Positions 6,498 through 27,792 of a DNA stretch of 29,924 nucleotides are shown here, in pieces (position 1 is the first letter of the stretch; each line of letters opens with the position of its first letter). The translations under genes and the position numbers were made by a program. The DNA comes from a virus (lineage: Duplodnaviria; Heunggongvirae; Uroviricota; Caudoviricetes). The stretch lies in the IMG/VR virus record IMGVR_UViG_2541047891_000002; one strand, given 5' to 3'. The notes below the pieces were generated by a model that did not search any database, was not told the origin of the DNA, and worked only from the letters and a program-made list of their open reading frames with translations.

Positions 6498-6883
6498 CGC
6501 AGGATTTGTTTGGCGACTTTCAGGATGACAGTATCCTGGCTCATCTTGACAATGAATCCGGGGATACGTCACGATTTCCGGCACTGCTGGCGGAACTGAA
6601 CGATGTGCTGCGTCAGGAACTGTCCCGGCTGGGCGTTGAACCTGCGCACTCTCTGGAGATTGTTGTGGCTATCTGTAAACATCTTGGCGGTGGTCAGGTC
6701 TATATTCCTCGTGGGCAGGTGCTGGATTCACTGGTTCGGGATTTACGAATCTGGAATGATTTTAACGGGCGCAATGTTCACGAACTGGCAATTCGTTATG
6801 GTGTGACGTTTAACACTGTCTATAAAGCCATCCGACGAATGCGGCGTATAAAGTATCGTCAGTATCAACCCCCTCTGTTTTAA
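6494..6883 (+). CDS. mor: Mor, activator of the middle promoter
   Basis: 129 aa; C-terminal block YIPRGQVLDSLVRDLRIWNDFNGRNVHELAIRYGVTFNTVYKAIRRMRR matches recalled Mu Mor and is paralogous to C. Confidence 0.88.
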   Translation: MTQDLFGDFQDDSILAHLDNESGDTSRFPALLAELNDVLRQELSRLGVEPAHSLEIVVAICKHLGGGQVYIPRGQVLDSLVRDLRIWNDFNGRNVHELAIRYGVTFNTVYKAIRRMRRIKYRQYQPPLF

Positions 6884-6888
6884 ACAGT

Positions 6889-6913
6889 AAAGCCGGTTAA
6901 TCCGGCTTTTTTT
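6889..6913 (+). terminator. Rho-independent terminator ending the early transcript after mor
   Basis: Stem AGCCGG (6891-6896) / CCGGCT (6902-6907), 5-nt loop, then a run of 7 T; begins 6 bp after the mor stop. Confidence 0.75.
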
Positions 6914-6965
6914 ACGCCCTCAATATTCTGTTGTGACGATAAAACGTTCATTACAGGAGGGCAAC
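6914..6965 (+). promoter_or_regulatory. Candidate middle promoter region (Pm-equivalent, expected to be Mor-dependent)
   Basis: Position only: between the early terminator and the first middle-operon gene; contains TGACGATAAAAC; no element verified. Confidence 0.3.
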
Positions 6966-7526
6966 ATGCCTGAGTTTTCCCCTGCATTCCTTCATTCGCT
7001 GAATTTTGTTATACGGCCTGATGTTGAAGGTGGTTACGTTAATGATCCCACTGACCGTGGCGGCGAAACCAAATACGGCATTTCTGACCGTCGCGACGGC
7101 GTTATTGATGGCAAAACCGATGTTAACGGTGACGGGAAGCCTGATACCCGTATTAAAGATTTAACCCACGAGCAGGCGGCGCAAATCTACTGGCGTGATT
7201 ACTGGCTGGCGGCAAAGTGTAACGAATGGCCTGATGGTGTTTCCTTATTCGTCTTTGATGCTGCCGTTCAGCACGGTGTTAAACGCGCAATTCAAATCCT
7301 CCAGGCGGCAGCAGGTGTTGATGATGATGGCATCGTCGGCAAAAACACCCGCGCAGCCGTTCTGCGTGCCGACACTGACTGGCTGCTGTTGCAGTGTTTC
7401 CTGCGTCGTTCCCGCTATTACGCAGGGATTATCAAATCCAGTGCCTCGCAGGGGAAATATCTGAACGGCTGGTTTAACCGCCTGGATCTGCTCGCCAGCG
7501 TCTGCCGGGAGGTTCTGCATGGGTAA
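6966..7526 (+). CDS. GH108-family muramidase with C-terminal peptidoglycan-binding domain
   Basis: Track ORF 6933-7526; start ATG 6966 with AGGAGG 5 nt upstream; N-terminal EGGYVNDPTDRGGETKYGI motif typical of glycoside hydrolase family 108; C-terminal DGIVGKNTRAAV resembles PG_binding_3. Confidence 0.75.
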   Translation: MPEFSPAFLHSLNFVIRPDVEGGYVNDPTDRGGETKYGISDRRDGVIDGKTDVNGDGKPDTRIKDLTHEQAAQIYWRDYWLAAKCNEWPDGVSLFVFDAAVQHGVKRAIQILQAAAGVDDDGIVGKNTRAAVLRADTDWLLLQCFLRRSRYYAGIIKSSASQGKYLNGWFNRLDLLASVCREVLHG

Positions 7527-8110: not shown

Positions 8111-8232
8111 TGTACAGAAGATTCAGTAATGAATGTTCCGGCATGGCTACGTTGCTGATGGTGATGAAGGGTATCACAGTTATTGCACTGCTTGCCGTAG
8201 TCACGGGGATCTGTCTGTTAGTTTTTCGCTGA
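8107..8232 (+). CDS. Small single-pass membrane protein (~41 aa)
   Basis: Track ORF 8047-8232; ATG 8107/8110 next to GGAGG; one hydrophobic helix ITVIALLAVVTGICLLVF. Confidence 0.35.
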   Translation: MMYRRFSNECSGMATLLMVMKGITVIALLAVVTGICLLVFR

Positions 8233-8242
8233 TGGGGGCAAA

Positions 8243-8653
8243 ATGACAAATCAGCAGGATTTATTTGAACATGATCCGGCTGTAAGCCAGTTAATGGATC
8301 ATATCGACAATATACCGGCTCCTGAGCAGGAGGCCCGCTGGCCCCGCGCGCTGGTTGAGCTGGTTGACGTTCTGGAAACAGAACTGAAACGTCAGGGCGT
8401 GGATGATGCACGGAGCATAGCCCGTAAACAGGTGATGTCCTTATCATGGTTCCTGGGGGGACGGCAGTATTACATCCCCCGGGGTGATGCACTTCTGGCA
8501 GCGTTGCGGGATGATCTGATTTACTGCCAGTTTAACGGTCGGAACATAGAGGAGCTGCGGCGTGAACATCGTCTGTCACAACCGCAGATTTACAAGATTA
8601 TTGCCCGGCAGAGAAAACTTCATTCACGGCGACATCAGCCCGATTTATTCTGA
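8243..8653 (+). CDS. C: C, activator of late transcription (Mor/C family)
   Basis: 136 aa; C-terminal block YYIPRGDALLAALRDDLIYCQFNGRNIEELRREHRLSQPQIYKIIARQRK paralogous to Mor; directly upstream of lys as in Mu. Confidence 0.85.
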   Translation: MTNQQDLFEHDPAVSQLMDHIDNIPAPEQEARWPRALVELVDVLETELKRQGVDDARSIARKQVMSLSWFLGGRQYYIPRGDALLAALRDDLIYCQFNGRNIEELRREHRLSQPQIYKIIARQRKLHSRRHQPDLF

Positions 8654-8686
8654 GTAACAGCAATCAATCGGTGCAGGCCGGTTGTG

Positions 8687-8755
8687 TTAATTAATAATAA
8701 CCCCGCCTGCAAATTCCCCTGAGTTACCCTCCTTTTATTACCGAAGGAGGGTTTC
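8687..8755 (+). promoter_or_regulatory. Candidate C-dependent late promoter region for lys
   Basis: 12-mer ATAACCCCGCCT at 8697-8708 is repeated exactly at 15903-15914 upstream of I; both followed within ~10-15 bp by TCCCC; also a near-dyad TTAATTAATAATAA at 8687-8700. Confidence 0.4.
8726..8752 (+). promoter_or_regulatory. Hairpin sequestering the lys ribosome-binding site
   Basis: ACCCTCCTT (8726-8734) pairs with AAGGAGGGT (8744-8752) around a 9-nt loop; the right arm contains the AGGAGG Shine-Dalgarno 5 nt before the lys ATG. Confidence 0.45.
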
Positions 8756-9184
8756 ATGAACGATTTTAAAAAACGTCTCCCCCGCATCATCAGAACACTT
8801 GCCATCGTGGTACTGGCGGCATGTGGTGGCTGGCAGTTGTCCGGCGATGGTGATTCATCGCTGGTTTCTGTTCAGTACCTTCCATACACAGACCAGCACG
8901 GCGAACTGACAGTTTGCCTTAACCATCACGGTCCTGATATTCAGCAACGCCCTTACAGCTATGGTGAATGCATCATGCTGTTGAAAGCAGATTTGAAGCC
9001 TGTTTATGACACGTTAAATACCCATCTGAACAGGCCACTGACAGAGGAACAAAAAAATGCACTGGCGGTGTTTATGTTCAGCGCCGGTTCTGGTGCTGTG
9101 CCCGCTCCCCGTAATAATCAGCTGCTGAATGATGATGTGTTACCGGTGCCGGGATTAATGCCGGGTATGTCGTCAGGGCTGTAA
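8756..9184 (+). CDS. lys: Lysozyme-fold endolysin homologue with SAR-type N-terminus, possibly degenerate
   Basis: 142 aa; N-terminus MNDFKKRLPRIIRTLAIVVLAACGGWQL (two Lys then a weakly hydrophobic Gly/Ala-rich segment); core YLPYTDQHGELTVCLNHHG aligns to the Y.PY.D.....T.C.GH block of SAR lysozymes; see findings for missing Glu. Confidence 0.7.
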   Translation: MNDFKKRLPRIIRTLAIVVLAACGGWQLSGDGDSSLVSVQYLPYTDQHGELTVCLNHHGPDIQQRPYSYGECIMLLKADLKPVYDTLNTHLNRPLTEEQKNALAVFMFSAGSGAVPAPRNNQLLNDDVLPVPGLMPGMSSGL

Positions 9185-9196
9185 ACAGGAGAGCGT

Positions 9197-9496
9197 GTGG
9201 ATATTTATTCAGTGCTGACCTACTCGATAGGCAGTGGCAGCACCATTGGTGGCATTTTGTGGTGGGCGGTGAGGCGTACATTTGCCAGCACGGAACGTGT
9301 GGAGCAAATCGAAAGCCGTTTAACCGCGCTTGAAACGAAGTGCGAAAACATGCCCAGTGCACAGGATTTACATGCTGTCCGGTTACAGACCGCAGAAACC
9401 AATGGTGAAGTGAAAGCGATGAACCGGCACATACAGGTGCTGACCCATCAACTGGAGCTTTTGCTCGAAAAGGCGCTCGGAGAGAACAACAAATGA
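9197..9496 (+). CDS. Membrane-anchored coiled-coil protein (i-spanin-like or releasin-like)
   Basis: GTG start 9197 with CAGGAGAG upstream; N-terminal hydrophobic helix SIGSGSTIGGILWWAV followed by a helical/coiled-coil region (EQIESRLTALETKCE ... HQLELLLEKAL). Confidence 0.5.
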   Translation: MDIYSVLTYSIGSGSTIGGILWWAVRRTFASTERVEQIESRLTALETKCENMPSAQDLHAVRLQTAETNGEVKAMNRHIQVLTHQLELLLEKALGENNK

Positions 9497-10370: not shown

Positions 10371-10383
10371 AGGAGAAAATGTA

Positions 10384-10578
10384 ATGGCTGTTGAAACCAA
10401 AGAAAAAACGTCTGCGGAAATTGCCCTGAAACTCAAACCCATCGTCGAAGCGGCGCTGGCTGAGGAGGGCAATATTCATATCGTCACAAAAGCCGAATCA
10501 CTGTATCTGTTAATGCAGATTGTGGTTGGCCCGCGTATCGCGGGCCAGATCATCAGAGAGTCACAAATTAATCAGTAA
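10384..10578 (+). CDS. Hypothetical small protein (65 aa)
   Basis: ATG 10384 preceded by AGGAG (10371-10375) at 8-nt spacing; lies inside track ORF 10162-10578, whose upstream part overlaps the D-like gene. Confidence 0.4.
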   Translation: MAVETKEKTSAEIALKLKPIVEAALAEEGNIHIVTKAESLYLLMQIVVGPRIAGQIIRESQINQ

Positions 10579-10753
10579 TCATTGCCTCCAACAACTGATA
10601 AATATGTTTTAACAACTCCCGTTCTGACTTCACATTTTGATCAGAACCGGCAAGACACGCTGGCTGTTTATTCGTATTCATGCCAGCGATAACAAAGTCA
10701 CTTGCTATTTTTGCAATCTCAATTTTTTGGTCAATGGTCAGCTTTTCTTTCAT
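10568..10753 (-). CDS. Hypothetical small protein (61 aa) on the reverse strand between D and E
   Basis: Reverse-strand ORF with AAGAGG upstream of its ATG and a TATAAAT-like element ~35 nt upstream; AT-rich against GC-rich flanks; 3' end overlaps 10384-10578 by 11 bp. Confidence 0.4.
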   Translation of the reverse strand: MKEKLTIDQKIEIAKIASDFVIAGMNTNKQPACLAGSDQNVKSERELLKHIYQLLEAMITD

Positions 10754-14001: not shown

Positions 14002-15301
14002 TCTGGCGTATGCCGCACGCCTCCCGCCAAAGGAGGCTGTCGCGTATTTCCGCGCCAAAGGCTACAACATCACCTGGAACTGGTACGAACAACTGGCAGA
14101 CGCGCACGCCCGTGCCTTTACCGTTGCCAAAGCTGCCCGGATGGATGTCCTGACCACAATCCGTGAGGAAGTGGAGCGGGCTGTCAGTGAGGGTATCACC
14201 CGTGAGGAATTTACCCGCACACTGGCTCCCCGGTTGCAAAAGCTCGGATGGTGGGGAAAACAAATCATTGTGGATGCAGAGGGAAACGCGAAGGAAATCG
14301 AACTGGGCAGTCCGCGTCGTCTGGCAACCATTTATAACGTCAATACCCGTACAGCGTACGGGGCGGGACGTTATGCACAGATGATGAATACCGCAGACCT
14401 GTATCCGTACTGGCAGTATGTCGCCGTTATGGACAGCAGAACGCGCCCGGAACATGCCCGGCTGCATAATATGATTTTCCGGTATGACGATATTTTCTGG
14501 CAGACACATTACCCGCCCAATGGCTGGAGCTGTCGCTGCCGCGTTCGTGCGATATCTGCGACCCGAATGAAAGAACTGGGATTACAGGTCAGCTATGGTG
14601 CTTCATTCATGGATACCCGCGAAGTGGAGGCCGGCACGGATGAAAGCACAGGAGAGATTTTCCGCACATCGTCAACCACGTTTGACAACGGTCGGGTAAA
14701 AATGACGCCGGACGTTGGCTGGTCATATAACCCCGGTTCGGCGGCATTCGGTACTGATCAGGCGCTGATTCGAAAACTGGTGGAAGTTCGTGACGCGCAG
14801 CTGCGTGAGCAGGTTGTACAAACGCTGAATAACAGCCGGGAGCGCCAGCTTGCTTTTTCCCTGTGGCTTAATCGTCTGGCGAAATCACGTCACGCCGGGC
14901 GTGAGATCCGGGCACTGGGTTTTATGACGGAATCGGTAGCTGAAGCCGTACATCAGCGCACCGGGAATATGCCAGCCCGTTTACTGGTGATGAATGGAGA
15001 AAGTCTGGCTACCGCTGCTGATGCTGCCCTGAAAGCAGAGGATTTACAGCGTCTGCCGTCTCTGATGGCAGAACCACAGGCGGTATTGTGGGACAGAAAA
15101 AATCACCAGCTGCTGTACGTTGTGGCAACCCGTGACGGCACGGCCCAAATTGTGGTCAGAACATCACAGACAGTCGGCAGGCAGAATGACCGGGCGGATG
15201 TGCTGGTCAGTATCAGCCGCGTATCTGCACAGTCGCTTGAAGCCGCGATTGCTGACGGGATGATTGACGTACTGGAAGGGCATGTGGAGGTGAATAAGTG
15301 A
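13982..15301 (+). CDS. F: Head morphogenesis protein F (Mu F / SPP1 gp7 family)
   Basis: Track ORF 13946-15301; preferred start ATG 13982 with GGGGGCG upstream; contains RTRPEHARLHN ... PPNGWSCRCR block typical of the Mu F family. Confidence 0.85.
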   Translation: MPQQTIDLAYAARLPPKEAVAYFRAKGYNITWNWYEQLADAHARAFTVAKAARMDVLTTIREEVERAVSEGITREEFTRTLAPRLQKLGWWGKQIIVDAEGNAKEIELGSPRRLATIYNVNTRTAYGAGRYAQMMNTADLYPYWQYVAVMDSRTRPEHARLHNMIFRYDDIFWQTHYPPNGWSCRCRVRAISATRMKELGLQVSYGASFMDTREVEAGTDESTGEIFRTSSTTFDNGRVKMTPDVGWSYNPGSAAFGTDQALIRKLVEVRDAQLREQVVQTLNNSRERQLAFSLWLNRLAKSRHAGREIRALGFMTESVAEAVHQRTGNMPARLLVMNGESLATAADAALKAEDLQRLPSLMAEPQAVLWDRKNHQLLYVVATRDGTAQIVVRTSQTVGRQNDRADVLVSISRVSAQSLEAAIADGMIDVLEGHVEVNK

Positions 15302-15768
15302 GTCTTGATATGAACGTTGCCGTGGATGTGCGACGTATCCGGCTTGCTCTTGATGATCTGGCAACGGTAACGCATGACGGATATGTGCCACGTGTGATGG
15401 CTGCGGCATTGCTGTCGTCTTCTGAACAGGCTTTTGAACGGCAGGCAGACCCGGACACGGGCCAGAGCTGGGAGTCATGGAGTGACCCGTGGCTGGCATG
15501 GCGTCAGGAGCATGGTTTTGTTCCGGGTAGCATTCTTACCCTGCATGGCGATCTGGCCCGCAGCATCACTTCCGCTTACGGCCCGGATTATGCCCTGATT
15601 GGCTCACCAAAAGTTTACGCTGCTATTCATCAGTGGGGCGGTAAGCCTGATATGCCCCCCGGTCCGGCAGGTGTTCCTGCACGTCCTTATATGGGGCTGG
15701 ATAAGAGCGGTGAGCAGGAAATTTATGATGCCATCAGAAAACGCGTAAGCGCCGCTCTGACGCAGTAA
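15298..15768 (+). CDS. G: Virion morphogenesis protein G
   Basis: 156 aa; GTG 15298 with GGAGG 7 nt upstream, overlapping the F stop; position between F and I as in Mu. Confidence 0.8.
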   Translation: MSLDMNVAVDVRRIRLALDDLATVTHDGYVPRVMAAALLSSSEQAFERQADPDTGQSWESWSDPWLAWRQEHGFVPGSILTLHGDLARSITSAYGPDYALIGSPKVYAAIHQWGGKPDMPPGPAGVPARPYMGLDKSGEQEIYDAIRKRVSAALTQ

Positions 15769-15954
15769 CCAGATACAGAGATAAAATCACGCGATAAAGA
15801 ATTTTTGAAGGTTCTGTGGCGTTTTTGAAGGGGTTTTGAAGGGGGTAGCGTCATGCATTTCCCTTCCCCTTTATCTTTCTCCTACAGAATTACTAAAACT
15901 GGATAACCCCGCCTTTTCTCCCGTTCCCCGCACACTGGCTACTCACAAATCACG
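15769..15954 (+). promoter_or_regulatory. G-I intergenic region: candidate late promoter for I and positional equivalent of the Mu strong gyrase site
   Basis: 186 bp without a credible ORF; three direct repeats of TTTTGAAGG; inverted repeat GAAGGG / CCCTTC; 12-mer ATAACCCCGCCT (15903-15914) identical to the one upstream of lys. Confidence 0.5.
15802..15845 (+). repeat. Three direct repeats TTTTGAAGG(G)
   Basis: Copies at 15802-15811, 15822-15833 and 15834-15845 (spacing 20 and 12 bp), read directly from the sequence. Confidence 0.8.
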
Positions 15955-17055
15955 ATGAGCAGGCCGGACATGAAAAAACACGCGATTGGTATTGCTGCGC
16001 TGGGTGCGCTGTCCATTGACGATGACGGCTGGTGCCAGCTATTGCCTGCCGGTTATTTCAGTGCCCGTGACGGTCGCCCGTTTGATGTAACAACTGGTCA
16101 GGGCTGGTTCATCGACGGAGAAATTGCCGGACGCCTGATTGAAGGTATCCGCGCACTTAACCAGGACGTGCTGATTGATTACGAGCATAACCAGCTGCGT
16201 AAGGACAAAGGATTACCCCCGGAACAACTGGTCGCGGCTGGCTGGTTTAACGCCGATGAAATGCAGTGGCGTGAAGGTGAAGGGTTATTTATCCACCCAC
16301 GCTGGACAGCGGCAGCCCAGCAGCGCATCGATGACGGTGAATTTGGTTATCTCTCTGCGGTTTTTCCGTATGACACCGCCACTGGTGCGGTACTGCAAAT
16401 CCGCCTTGCTGCGCTGACCAATGATCCCGGGGCCACCGGCATGAAAAAGCTGACCGCACTGGCGGCAGACCTTCCCGACATCCTTCAACAGGAGAACAAA
16501 CCCATGAATGAAACGCTGCGCAAGCTGCTTGCGCGTCTTGGGGTGACTGTCCCCGAAAATGCAGACATCACCGATGAACAGGCAACAGCGGCACTGACCG
16601 CGCTGGACACGCTGGAAAGTAACGCCGGGAAAGTGGCGGCGTTGTCTGCCGAACTGGAAAAGGCACAGAAAGCCGCCGTTGACCTGACGAAATACGTCCC
16701 GGTGGAAAGCTACAACGCCCTGCGTGATGAACTGGCACAGGCGACTGCACAAAGCGCCACAGCCAGCCTGAGCGCCGTTCTGGACAAGGCGGAACAGGAA
16801 GGCCGCATTTTCAAAAGCGAACGTACCTATCTGGAACAGCTTGGCGGTCAGATTGGCGTGGCGGCACTGTCGGCACAGCTTGAGAAAAAACAGCCCATCG
16901 CTGCGTTATCTGCCATGCAGACCACCACAGCGAAAATCCCGTCGCTGGAAAAACCGGCGGTGGCGGTGCTGTCTGCTGATGAACAGGCAGCAGTGAAGGC
17001 GCTCGGCATTACTGAGGCTGAGTATCTGAAAATGAAACAGGAACAAGAAAAATGA
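15955..17055 (+). CDS. I: Head protease / scaffold protein I (scaffold Z expected from an internal start)
   Basis: 366 aa; N-terminal half protease-like, C-terminal half Ala/Glu/Leu/Gln-rich helical scaffold-like sequence; directly upstream of major capsid gene. Confidence 0.85.
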   Translation: MSRPDMKKHAIGIAALGALSIDDDGWCQLLPAGYFSARDGRPFDVTTGQGWFIDGEIAGRLIEGIRALNQDVLIDYEHNQLRKDKGLPPEQLVAAGWFNADEMQWREGEGLFIHPRWTAAAQQRIDDGEFGYLSAVFPYDTATGAVLQIRLAALTNDPGATGMKKLTALAADLPDILQQENKPMNETLRKLLARLGVTVPENADITDEQATAALTALDTLESNAGKVAALSAELEKAQKAAVDLTKYVPVESYNALRDELAQATAQSATASLSAVLDKAEQEGRIFKSERTYLEQLGGQIGVAALSAQLEKKQPIAALSAMQTTTAKIPSLEKPAVAVLSADEQAAVKALGITEAEYLKMKQEQEK

Positions 17056-17969
17056 TTGTCACCCCGGCATCCATTAAAGCCCTGATGACCTCCTGGCGTA
17101 AGGATTTTCAGGGCGGTCTTGAAGACGCCCCGTCGCAGTACAGCAAAATTGCAATGGTGGTGAACTCCTCATCCCGCACTAATACCTATGGCTGGCTGGG
17201 TAAATTCCCTGCCATGAAAGAATGGGTGGGTAAGCGAACCATTCAGCAAATGGCAGCGCATGGCTACTCCATCGCCAATAAAACGTTTGAAGGCACCGTG
17301 GGCGTAAGCCGTGATGACTTCGAGGATGACAATCTGGGTATTTATGCGCCGATGTTTCAGGAGATGGGCCGTTCTGCGGCAGTTCAGCCGGATGAGCTGA
17401 TTTTTAAACTTCTGAAAGATGGCTTTACCCAGCCCTGCTATGACGGTCAGAACTTCTTCGACAAGGAGCATCCGGTATATCCGAATGTGGACGGCACGGG
17501 CAGCGCGGTTAATACCTCCAACATCGTTGAGCAGGACAGCTTCAGCGGTCTGCCATTCTATCTGCTGGACTGCTCCCGCGCAGTCAAACCGCTGATTTTC
17601 CAGGAGCGCCGCAAACCGGAACTGGTCGCACGTACCCGTATCGATGACGACCACGTTTTTATGGATAACGAGTTCCTGTTTGGTGCCAGCGCCCGCCGTG
17701 CTGCCGGTTACGGCTTCTGGCAGATGGCTGTCGCGGTAAAAGGCGATCTGACGCTGGATAACCTCTGGAAGGGCTGGCAACTGATGCGTTCTTTTGAAGG
17801 TGATGGCGGTAAGAAGCTGGGCCTGAAGCCGACGCATATCGTTGTACCGGTCGGACTGGAAAAATCCGCAGAGCAACTGCTTAACCGTGAGCTGTTCGCG
17901 GATGGCAATACCACCGTCTCTAACGAGATGAAGGGTAAGCTGCAACTGGTTGTCGCTGACTACCTGTAA
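17052..17969 (+). CDS. T: Major capsid protein T
   Basis: 305 aa; ATGA overlap with I; followed by a strong terminator; sequence matches recalled Mu T. Confidence 0.88.
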   Translation: MIVTPASIKALMTSWRKDFQGGLEDAPSQYSKIAMVVNSSSRTNTYGWLGKFPAMKEWVGKRTIQQMAAHGYSIANKTFEGTVGVSRDDFEDDNLGIYAPMFQEMGRSAAVQPDELIFKLLKDGFTQPCYDGQNFFDKEHPVYPNVDGTGSAVNTSNIVEQDSFSGLPFYLLDCSRAVKPLIFQERRKPELVARTRIDDDHVFMDNEFLFGASARRAAGYGFWQMAVAVKGDLTLDNLWKGWQLMRSFEGDGGKKLGLKPTHIVVPVGLEKSAEQLLNRELFADGNTTVSNEMKGKLQLVVADYL

Positions 17970-17977
17970 CCGTCGTT

Positions 17978-18001
17978 AAAAGGCGGTTCAGGCCGCCTTT
18001 T
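17978..18001 (+). terminator. Rho-independent terminator after the major capsid gene
   Basis: AAAAGGCGG (17978-17986) / CCGCCTTTT (17993-18001) perfect 9-bp stem with 6-nt loop and T-run in the 3' arm. Confidence 0.75.
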
Positions 18002-18035
18002 AACCTGATTTAAAGGAAAAGGAGGAGCATGTGTT

Positions 18036-18446
18036 ATGTCAGGCACTTCGCTTAATTCACAACGGCTGGACACTTCTCGCATCACTTGCACGGCGATTAT
18101 TAAATGTCTTCGCCCGGTCTACCGCCGCGCCGGTATCGCCTTTACGCGTGGCGAAAACACAGTGGAAGTCACCGAAGAACAACTGGCGATCATCCGTGCC
18201 GACAGCGTGTTGTCTGTTGTATCGACAACGGCAGCAGAAACGCTCGCTGAGGCTGGGGGGCTGGACGTTCTGGGTGTGGGCGATCTGAACGCCCGTATCC
18301 GTGCGACCGTTGCCGGTCTGGATCAGGCAAACCCGGAACACTTTACCGCAGGGGGAGAACCCAAAGTGAAAGCGGTCAGTGCGGTGCTGGGGGAAAACGT
18401 CACTGCGGCACAAATCAAAGCAGCACTAGCTGAGGCACAAGCATGA
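18036..18446 (+). CDS. Mu gp35-like head-associated protein (hypothetical)
   Basis: 136 aa; AAGGAGGAG ~10 nt upstream of ATG 18036; position between T and J. Confidence 0.55.
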   Translation: MSGTSLNSQRLDTSRITCTAIIKCLRPVYRRAGIAFTRGENTVEVTEEQLAIIRADSVLSVVSTTAAETLAEAGGLDVLGVGDLNARIRATVAGLDQANPEHFTAGGEPKVKAVSAVLGENVTAAQIKAALAEAQA

Positions 18447-24157: not shown

Positions 24158-25645
24158 ATGTTTGAAGATGCTTTAAATGCCGTTAATTCTGTCCGGGATA
24201 AAATCGGCGGTGGTAAGAAAACAACCGGCAAAGGCACGTTCCGTAACGTGCCGTTTCTCGTCATTGAGGAGCAAAAACAGGCTGGCGGACGTCGTCTGGT
24301 TAAACGCGAGTACCCGTTACGTGATACCGGCGGTGTCAATGACCTGGGGAAAAAACTTCGCTCCCGCACATTCAGCATCTGCATTCTGAACAGCAACGCA
24401 GAGACTGCCAGAGATGAAGCGGGTGCGCTGATGGATGCTCTTGATGCACCGGGCAGCGGCGAACTGGTGCATCCAGAGTTCGGCACTGTGGACGTCATGG
24501 TGGATTCATGGGAATGCCGTACTAAAGCGGATGAACTGAATTATTACGCGTTCACCGTTACCGTTTATCCGTCGTTGCAGGATACAGCCCCGGACGCAGA
24601 AACAGACACCAGTACAGCCGTATCTGCACAGGCCGTTGCTGTAACTGGTTCGCTGGGGGATACGTTGTCCTCTGTCTGGCAGACCGTAAAAGATGGCACA
24701 GCGGCGGCAACAGCCGTAATGGATGCCGTAACCGGCGTCATCGATGATATCTGTGATGCGGTGGATAATCTGGGGATCACCCAGACTATCAGCGGCCTGA
24801 TGGGGTCACTTTCTGCAATGAAAGGTTCTGTGACCGGCCTGATAAATAAACCAGCCATGCTGACATCTTCACTGATGGGGGCGTTATCCGGCGTTTCATC
24901 GTTATGCGATACCCGGACAGCATTTTCCACCTGGAACCGTCTGGCGCAGCGGTTCGAAAGCCGACATGCCTCCACCACTGACAGACAAGGTGCCATTACC
25001 ACTTCATACAGCAGCCCGGTTGCAGAAAAAAATATTGCCACACTGAACTACGTCATGCTGGCAGCAGCACAGACATACCGGGCGGAGGCAGCAAGCCAGG
25101 CACTGACTGCGGCACTGGATTCCAGCCGTCAGATGGATAATGCCGCCCGTGCACCGGCGCTGGATGTATCAGTCACAACAACCGGCATCGCCAGTGGTGC
25201 CAGCAGCACATCGTCCACGGTCACACAAAGCCAGTTGCAGTTAACCGGGATAACCCCGGACGGCGGCTTTTCACCAGTATCCTTTTCAGACAGTAGCACA
25301 GCCACGCCCCCGGTATTTGAAAGCGTGTCCGATATCGAAAAAACAACTGCCATGCTGGGGGCGGCGCTGGATAGCGTCATTCTGACGGCATCTGAGCAGG
25401 GTTTTTCGACAGACAGTGTTCAGCTTACGCAACTGCGTCTGCTGGTTGTTGCCGACCAGGAAAAACGCGGGCTGCAACTGGCGGGTAGTGAATCACACCA
25501 CCTGCCGGAAACGCTCCCGGCAATGGTGGCACTGTACCGGTTCACCGGAAACAGCCGGAACTGGCAACGGCTGGCCCGCAGGAACGGTATCAGCAACCCG
25601 TTATTTGTTCCCGGTGGTGTCAGTATTGAGGTGATTAATGAGTAA
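24158..25645 (+). CDS. N: DNA circularisation protein N
   Basis: 495 aa directly after tape measure; position and size match Mu N. Confidence 0.8.
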
Positions 25646-26777: not shown

Positions 26778-27358
26778 ATGATTCCGCCATGAACCGCCTG
26801 TTGACACCGCTGATGCGTCGTGTGCGTCTGATGCTTGCGCGTGCCGTTGTTAACGTGATTAACGACGGGCGAAAGGTTCAGAACCTGCAGGTCGGTCTGC
26901 TGGATGATGAGGAATCTGATGAAGTGGAGCGCCTGCAAAATTACGGGCATTTCAGCGTTCCCCTGCCGGGCGCAGAGGCGCTGATTGCCTGTGTGGGTGC
27001 ACAACGTGATCAGGGGATTGCCGTTGTGGTGGAAGACCGCCGCTACCGCCCGACAAATCTTGAACCGGGTGATGCAGGCATTTACCACCACGAGGGGCAT
27101 CGAATCAGGCTGACAAAGGACGGGCGCTGCATCATTACCTGTAAAACGGTTGAGGTTTACGCTGATGAAGGTATGACCGTTGATACACCCAGAACCACAT
27201 TTACCGGCGACGTTGAGATCCAGAAAGGTCTGGGCGTTAAAGGTAAAAGCCAGTTCGACAGCAATATTACTGCCCCGGATGCCATCATCAATGGCAAATC
27301 GACGGATAAGCATATCCACCGCGGCGACAGCGGCGGAACCACGGGGCCGATGCAATGA
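26765..27358 (+). CDS. Q: Baseplate central spike protein Q (gp45-like)
   Basis: 197 aa; C-terminal HIHRGDSGG; overlaps P stop. Confidence 0.8.
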   Translation: MERVNDSAMNRLLTPLMRRVRLMLARAVVNVINDGRKVQNLQVGLLDDEESDEVERLQNYGHFSVPLPGAEALIACVGAQRDQGIAVVVEDRRYRPTNLEPGDAGIYHHEGHRIRLTKDGRCIITCKTVEVYADEGMTVDTPRTTFTGDVEIQKGLGVKGKSQFDSNITAPDAIINGKSTDKHIHRGDSGGTTGPMQ

Positions 27359-27792
27359 CCGATTTAGCCATTATCTGGACGAACGGACGCGGCGATATTG
27401 CACAGGATGGCATTGATATGCTGACCGACGACAGCCTGACAACCGATGTGACAATCTCCCTGTTTACAGACCGGCGCGCGCTGGATTCTGACACGCTGCC
27501 GGATGGTTCAGATAATCGCCGTGGATGGTGGGGGGACAGTTACCGCGACCGCCCCATCGGTTCGCGGTTGTGGCTGTTGTCACGTGAAAAAGCCACGCCG
27601 GATACGCTGGAACGCGCCAGAGGGTATGCCGAAGAGGCGCTGGAATGGCTGAAAACAGCGGGCCGGGTAAGTGCGATTAACGTCAGAGCGGAACAGTTAC
27701 ATCAGGGCTGGTTATACCTCTACATTGCACTGACATTACCGGATGGTTCCGTTATTCCTTATGAGTTTAAAGCAGCATTTAACGGGGTTTAA
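27355..27792 (+). CDS. V: Baseplate wedge protein V (gp46 / T4 gp25-like)
   Basis: 145 aa; ATGA overlap with Q. Confidence 0.8.
   Translation: MTDLAIIWTNGRGDIAQDGIDMLTDDSLTTDVTISLFTDRRALDSDTLPDGSDNRRGWWGDSYRDRPIGSRLWLLSREKATPDTLERARGYAEEALEWLKTAGRVSAINVRAEQLHQGWLYLYIALTLPDGSVIPYEFKAAFNGV

Follow-up and report, generated by a model that had tools for sequence, protein, structure and literature searches.

The late promoters of phage Mu were reportedly mapped by Margolin et al. in 1989 using S1 mapping. Their coordinates were taken here from the Mu record AF083977.1, which cites PMID 2522923 and annotates Plys at 10403-10469, PI at 17977-18043, PP at 27287-27353, and Pmom at 35693-35759. The activator C occupies a 16-bp imperfect dyad that is centred at -43.5, with a footprint from about -30 to -55; Plys requires the region from -52 to -34, and bases just downstream of the dyad reportedly matter for activation (PMC2582627). 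The consensus of the C site has been given as TTAT-N5-6-ATAA (PMC12867686). In one step, C turns the unproductive complex of RNA polymerase at lys, I, and P into an open complex that is productive (PMC4461284). This needs sigma-70, and according to recent work MuC-dependent transcription also requires the beta clamp as well as the clamp-binding motifs of MuC (PMC12867686). Mu Plys and Pmom are the only promoters for which binding of C and dependence on C and sigma-70 are known (PMC2582627, PMC4461284). C was regarded as a dimer in older work and as a tetramer in a 2025 preprint.

[quoted passage not shown] Three sites in the DNA analyzed here, a stretch of 29,924 nucleotides that is called the window in the following, fit this register exactly, with TACCCT, CACACT, and TATCCT as -10 hexamers. 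Two of them include a copy of the 12-mer ATAACCCCGCCT, which the original prediction had proposed as the mark of C-dependent late promoters that lack a -35 element. The exact register of the 12-mer with the ATAAYC(C/A)C block of the four Mu promoters argues for this proposal, and the two copies are very probably the promoter-proximal part of predicted C sites in the orthologs of Plys and PI, with a third site in the PP ortholog at 25237-25303. This reading is built on the sequence itself, its register, synteny, conservation, and the presence of the cognate activator, all of which can be observed directly.

The window is a Mu-like prophage of E. coli, of the rare SE11 type. With megablast it is about 93% identical to Mu, D108, SfMu, and Yersinia Mu-like phages from position 9493 onward, while the C-lys region has no megablast match at this level, and among 5,426 complete genomes of E. 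coli, just three, SE11 included, have the segment 7700-9600 with at least 99.3% identity. The annotation of SE11 follows the gene order of Mu (repressor, ner, A, B ... mor ... C, a short glycoside hydrolase, DUF2730, terminase, portal, F, G, protease I, T). The protein identities to Mu are uneven (Mor 87%, gp18 85%, gp19 38%, gp20 50%, C 75%, Lys 41%, gp25 42%, gp26 97%, gp27 99%), and thus the prophage is mosaic. Compared to Mu, two small genes are present between the genes for the small and the large terminase subunits, at 10384-10578 (+) and 10568-10753 (-); both match PHROGs of unknown function (1.6e-41 and 3.2e-47), and one of them is oriented opposite to the late operon strand.

A search of the whole window returned exact copies of ATAACCCCGCCT at 8697-8708 and 15903-15914, as predicted, both on the + strand, and no third exact copy on either strand. 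An exact 12-mer common to both 100-bp upstream regions arose in 4.9e-4 of 200,000 shuffles, in agreement with the earlier estimate of 6e-4, and when real 100-bp pieces were drawn from the window and paired at random, an exact 12-mer was common to both at a frequency of 1.5e-3. The distances to the genes had been given as 48 bp for lys and 40 bp for I. The former is close, with 47 nt between the 12-mer and the ATG of the lys-like gene at 8756, and the latter holds for the first in-frame ATG of I at 15955, but Mu and SE11 annotate I from the second ATG at 15970. The features on the lys side are as follows:

8243-8653, + strand: C gene, late activator of the Mor/C family, 136 aa, 75% identical to Mu C over 133 aa (Pfam Mor, 111.7 bits)
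8665-8684, + strand: terminator-like hairpin ending the middle (C) transcript, found by a terminator scan; its T-rich tail runs into the C site
8686-8701, + strand: predicted 16-bp imperfect C dyad of the lys-side promoter, -51 to -36, containing TTAA-N6-ATAA and sharing the register of the dyads at Mu Plys and Pmom
8697-8708, + strand: lys copy of the 12-mer, -40 to -29, made up of ATAA as the right half-site, CCCC, which is conserved, and GCCT, which is not
8725-8730, + strand: -10 hexamer TACCCT of the lys-side promoter; its distance of 24 nt from ATAA is that of all four late promoters of Mu
8726-8752, + strand: hairpin in which ACCCUCCUUU is paired with the Shine-Dalgarno sequence GAAGGAGGGU of the 8756 gene (fold -16.4 kcal/mol, z = -3.8)
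8756-9184, + strand: truncated lysozyme-like gene, first of the operon, 142 aa, 41% identical to residues 4-114 of Mu Lys

The near-dyad TTAATTAATAATAA at 8687-8700 is present as originally described and lies where the C dyad TTAT-N5-6-ATAA is placed in the literature (PMC12867686; PMC2582627). Its halves and spacer, TTAA-TTAATA-ATAA, extend from -50 to -37, the dyad's own position. Counted in the same way, the 12-mer runs from -40 to -29, and its conserved CCCC stands where a -35 element would be. The transcript start is predicted near 8737, and a simple sigma-70 scan found no promoter with a -35 element in 8200-9000. TATTAC at 8736-8741 was considered as an alternative -10 hexamer and was rejected; its register is off by 11 nt, the final T is missing, and an alignment of six lineages supports TACCCT. 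A second proposed element, the sequence TCCCC, indeed follows each 12-mer, but at offsets of 18 (lys) versus 22 (I) from the A of ATAA, which is 4 nt out of register, and it is absent from the PP ortholog, and was therefore rejected.

The hairpin at 8665-8684 has a folding energy of -11.9 kcal/mol (z = -2.8), its stem columns are invariant in the six-lineage alignment, and Mu has a terminator at the same position (10383-10406). The second hairpin, at 8726-8752, has a 5' arm that shares bases with the -10 hexamer and is located upstream of 8737, where the late start is predicted, and the transcript from 8737 onward has no significant structure (fold, z = -0.26). This hairpin, which is seen in this lineage only, could be formed only by read-through transcripts from the C operon. 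It would make translation of the 8756 gene depend on initiation at the late promoter.

The features on the I side are:

15826-15873 (approximate), + strand: terminator-like hairpin between G and I, with a long loop and a U-rich run after it
15892-15907, + strand: region of the predicted C dyad at the I promoter, -51 to -36, with the register of Mu PI
15903-15914, + strand: I copy of the 12-mer, -40 to -29
15931-15936, + strand: -10 hexamer CACACT of the I promoter, with the spacing of Mu PI (hexamer CAAACT)

The I promoter is identical to Mu PI at 48 of 67 positions. Its transcript start is predicted near 15943, ahead of the I gene from 15970, and the simple sigma-70 scan found no promoter with a -35 element in 15500-16200. 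A simple terminator scan ahead of PI returned nothing, but folding of 15800-15895 reveals the long-loop hairpin (-29.8 kcal/mol, z = -2.75), and Mu has a terminator at the same place (17908-17953). The G-I intergenic region (15769-15890, compared to 17860-17976 in Mu) is a strongly diverged patch with flanks of about 93% identity. In Mu this region holds an annotated gyrase cut site at 17879/17880, and the Mu terminator hairpin is replaced in the window by a different one with GAAGGGG repeats.

The promoter for P had been expected at about 25597, where a weaker relative of the 12-mer was noted. This expectation was not borne out. Two sequences in this part of the window have to be distinguished:

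25237-25303, + strand: ortholog of the Mu P promoter (PP), inside N, 59 of 67 positions identical to the annotated Mu PP (27287-27353)
25595-25614, + strand: the weaker relative, AACCCGTTATTTGTTCCCGG, 2 nt from the position first given for it; not a late-promoter element

The PP ortholog has ATAA at 25250, within a third ATAACCCC, and the -10 hexamer TATCCT at 25278-25283. Between ATAA and the hexamer only 2 bases are changed compared to Mu PP, just before the hexamer, and the start is predicted near 25290, 348 nt upstream of the ATG of P. The candidate at 25595-25614 contains neither an ATAAYCCC core nor a -10 hexamer in register; Mu has the same sequence, with 100% identity, at 27645-27664 and no promoter annotation there.

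A further candidate is located inside F, where a fourth ATAACCCCGG is found at 14727-14736. It is kept in Mu (at 16818) and in the loci L002, L003, L007, and L008, and superficially it resembles PP. As a cryptic promoter it was rejected: no -10 hexamer is in register (TGATCA/GGATCA), and the match to PP after the core, judged by eye without gaps, is weak. It is probably conserved as coding sequence. The missing promoter features at this site indicate that the 8-mer alone does not define a promoter.

All three promoters are placed as in Mu, according to synteny with the Mu record and the SE11 annotation, and thus have the same flanking genes, namely C and lys for Plys, G and I for PI, and N, inside which PP precedes P. 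They share with the Mu late promoters the ATAAYCCC block, the 24 nt from ATAA to a -10 hexamer of the TAnnnT or CAnACT type, the lack of a -35 element, the terminator ahead of Plys and PI, and an activator of the same family that is encoded just upstream. Outside the core and the -10 hexamer, the lys-side promoter has only 23 of 67 bases in common with Mu Plys, and its left half is AT-rich (TTAATTAATA) and closer to TTAT-N6-ATAA than that of Mu Plys. In addition, the leader is shorter than in Mu and carries the Shine-Dalgarno-masking hairpin, and the gene that would be driven is a truncated, apparently relic lysozyme.

The right half, ATAA plus CCC, is exact at all three window sites, and the left halves are TTAA, CTAA, and GTTA/TTAA; as poor matches to TTAT, these left halves speak against the assignment as C sites. 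Imperfect left half-sites are likewise found at Mu Plys, PI, and PP, and the strict palindrome TTAT-N5-6-ATAA matches none of the three promoters of the window nor Mu Plys, PI, or PP. As a promoter detector the strict palindrome was rejected, because it yields only two unrelated matches in the early region, near the chance frequency (2 versus 0.46 expected). These matches, at 2627-2639 and 2690-2703, are separated by 63 bp and follow B; both have a GGAG and are probably ribosome-binding regions of small early genes. ATAAYCCC occurs six times in the window (1.3 expected), and together with an in-register nAnnnT it selects exactly the three promoter sites, compared to an expectation of 0.08; none of 100 shuffles reached three.

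In addition, 34 loci (598 kb, both strands) were gathered via the C protein from viral contigs, one genome contig, and Mu; viral contigs were scanned first with a single C protein and then with a C alignment, and the scan of genome contigs with a single C protein gave one locus. Across these loci the combination of core and nAnnnT retrieved only homologs of Plys, PI, PP, and Pmom, plus one stray match in a distant phage. The Mor-dependent middle promoter served as a negative control. Its ortholog at 6876-6946 is identical to Mu Pm at 55 of 71 positions and does not contain ATAAYCCC, and therefore the motif is specific to late promoters. Mu Pm is comparable in another respect, as it is activated by Mor, the paralog of C in the Mor/C family, from an imperfect dyad centred at -43.5 over the missing -35 element (PMC2582627; PMC4287176). 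It differs in its DNA sequence, and the Mor of the window is 43% identical to C.

Conservation was analyzed with an alignment of the region downstream of C from six lineages, the C proteins of which are 64-75% identical to that of the window. On the lys side the invariant parts are the terminator stem, AA-CCC of the core, and TTA--CT at the -10 hexamer (the T, TA, and CT columns), at constant spacing. In the alignment of the I promoter, also from six lineages, A..T.AA of the left half, all eight bases of ATAACCCC, and the -10 hexamer are invariant. Outside the core and the -10 hexamer the flanks have diverged to near-randomness. An information profile of 14 sites is high only at T-49, A-47, -40 to -33, A-11, C-8, and T-7, and the GCCT at -32 to -29 falls into columns of 0.1-0.6 bits. 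GCCT is found at this position in none of the other lineages, and in none of them do the lineage's own Plys and PI agree there. Only the first eight bases, ATAAYCCC, are conserved across five to six lineages. Therefore, the conserved functional unit is the 8-mer plus the spacing, and the 12-mer as first proposed adds four lineage-specific bases to it.

The C protein that would act at these sites is encoded immediately upstream of the lys-side promoter. At the DNA-contact positions listed in the C-TAC preprint (10.1101/2025.05.02.651988), 12 of 16 residues are the same in Mu C and in the C of the window; at one of these 12 the residue differs from that printed in the preprint. The helix-turn-helix region SQPQIY(Q/K)IIARQRK is near-identical, with Q116K in the recognition helix as the single change, and judging from this residue the specificity could differ subtly from that of Mu C. 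Both clamp-binding motifs are kept, QQDLF at positions 4-8 and QPDLF at positions 132-136.

A match between the lys and I promoters has also been noted in Mu, where it is 10 bp long (PMC4461284, Fig. 1 legend). It was identified here as TCCCGCACCT, which is located at -36 in Plys and at -26 in PI and is thus out of register, offset by 10 bp or one helical turn, whereas the 12-bp match of the window is in register. Most simply, the GCCT at -32 to -29 arose in this lineage by coincidence or came from an exchange between the two promoters, and chance or exchange is more likely than an extended recognition site. In the case of exchange, the identity of the two 12-mers would stem from recombination, gene conversion between the promoter regions, or a mosaic junction, and would have no function beyond the 8-bp core. 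The mosaic nature of Mu-like phages is in agreement with this possibility, here visible in the fall of amino acid identity to Mu from 85-99% to 38-75% between gp19 and gp25, as is the divergent G-I intergenic patch between flanks of about 93% identity. However, the identity ends after 12 bp, the left flanks (TTAATA and AACTGG) are wholly different, and 12 bp is shorter than typical conversion tracts. Exchange as such is therefore regarded as unlikely, and the present data do not distinguish it from chance.

Alternatively, the whole 12-mer might be the functional unit in this lineage, with GCCT as an extended contact for a variant C (e.g., with Q116K), for region 4 of sigma, or for the beta flap, which would have co-evolved at both promoters. 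The in-register position of the match at -40 in both promoters, unlike in Mu, would fit, and so would the reports that bases just past the dyad matter and that the footprint reaches -30 (PMC2582627). Furthermore, a divergent segment of the mosaic holds both the C gene and the lys-side promoter, and divergence in the G-I intergenic region likewise exceeds that of the sequence on either side. Several observations speak against an extended unit: the positions -32 to -29 carry only 0.1-0.6 bits over 14 sites, no other lineage has matching bases there in Plys and PI, PP of the same window has GGAC instead of GCCT, and four extra matches would arise by chance in roughly 0.4-1% of cases where the stretch is rich in C and G, and were noticed post hoc among several lineages. 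Such an extended unit is thus very unlikely. A specific version, in which the C site was extended in the rare SE11-type lineage, GCCT became required at both non-coding late promoters and co-evolved with Q116K, and PP, locked in the coding sequence of N, was unable to follow, is improbable to a similar degree; if it were true, the three late operons would be activated with a strength or timing unlike that in Mu. That the repeat is a chance match or an unrelated host-factor site with no role in late transcription is almost certainly wrong, since the sole point in its favor, the 8-mer core inside F at 14727 without promoter features, stands against a probability of about 5e-4 for a shared 12-mer, positional orthology to mapped Mu promoters, the invariant core, the fixed distance to the -10 hexamer, and the location at operon heads after terminators, so that the conservation data have effectively refuted it.

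The two predicted C sites in the orthologs of Plys and PI, together with that in PP, would fit into the following course of events. C would be made from the middle transcript, which would end at the hairpin at 8665-8684. It would then bind the imperfect dyad, the centre of which is placed about 43.5 bp ahead of the start, with a right half of ATAA followed by CCC(C) and a degenerate left half (TTAT/TAAA); this centre is counted from the predicted starts. The C site would overlap the place of the missing -35 hexamer, and C would thereby let the sigma-70 RNA polymerase use a promoter with a -10 hexamer only, 24 nt downstream of ATAA. The late operons, from lys to G and from I onward, would then be fired. 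In this scheme the binding of C, the starts near 8737, 15943, and 25290, and the dependence on C are expected by analogy with Mu; the starts are extrapolated from the Mu register and would lie about 7 nt past the -10 hexamers.

The gene behind the lys-side promoter differs from an ordinary endolysin gene. Its product matches Pfam Phage_lysozyme only in part, with 43 bits compared to 130 for Mu Lys, and has 142 aa compared to 168-171 aa in five relatives. The invariant catalytic Glu (E37 of Mu) is replaced by Val, and the Gly-rich SAR segment is replaced by LAIVVLAAC, which is similar to the lipobox of lipoproteins. No frame of the gene at 8756-9184 encodes the last approximately 50 residues of the lysozyme domain. 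Judged from these features, the product is not an intact Mu endolysin, and may represent either a relic in decay or a lipoprotein with a new role. With tblastn no homologs of the Mu i-spanin gp23, the o-spanin, or gp24 were found anywhere in the window, and the distance from lys to gp26 is 737 bp compared to 1534 bp in Mu. Therefore, the lysis cassette appears to be reduced in the region 9185-9496, between the lys-like gene and the gp25 homolog. Another gene of the endolysin type, with GH108 and PG_binding_3 domains, is present at 6966-7526 (Pfam 85.8 bits; PHROG endolysin 4e-51). It is absent from Mu and is located between mor and the homolog of gene 18, directly after the middle promoter at 6876-6946 and thus at the head of the middle operon. 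Its product could be the working endolysin, with middle rather than late expression.

The assignment of the late promoters matters little beyond annotation, in that three late promoters are placed precisely and have predicted starts, and the expected position of the P promoter is corrected. The degraded lysis cassette that follows the lys-side promoter poses a small puzzle of its own. For relatives of Mu, the rule of ATAAYCCC followed, 24 nt after ATAA, by a -10 hexamer picks late promoters with almost no false positives, and the divergent lys-side promoter is a natural variant for studying the degeneracy of the left half of the C site. What is seen here is the conserved sequence of the well-studied Mu late promoters in a diverged relative.
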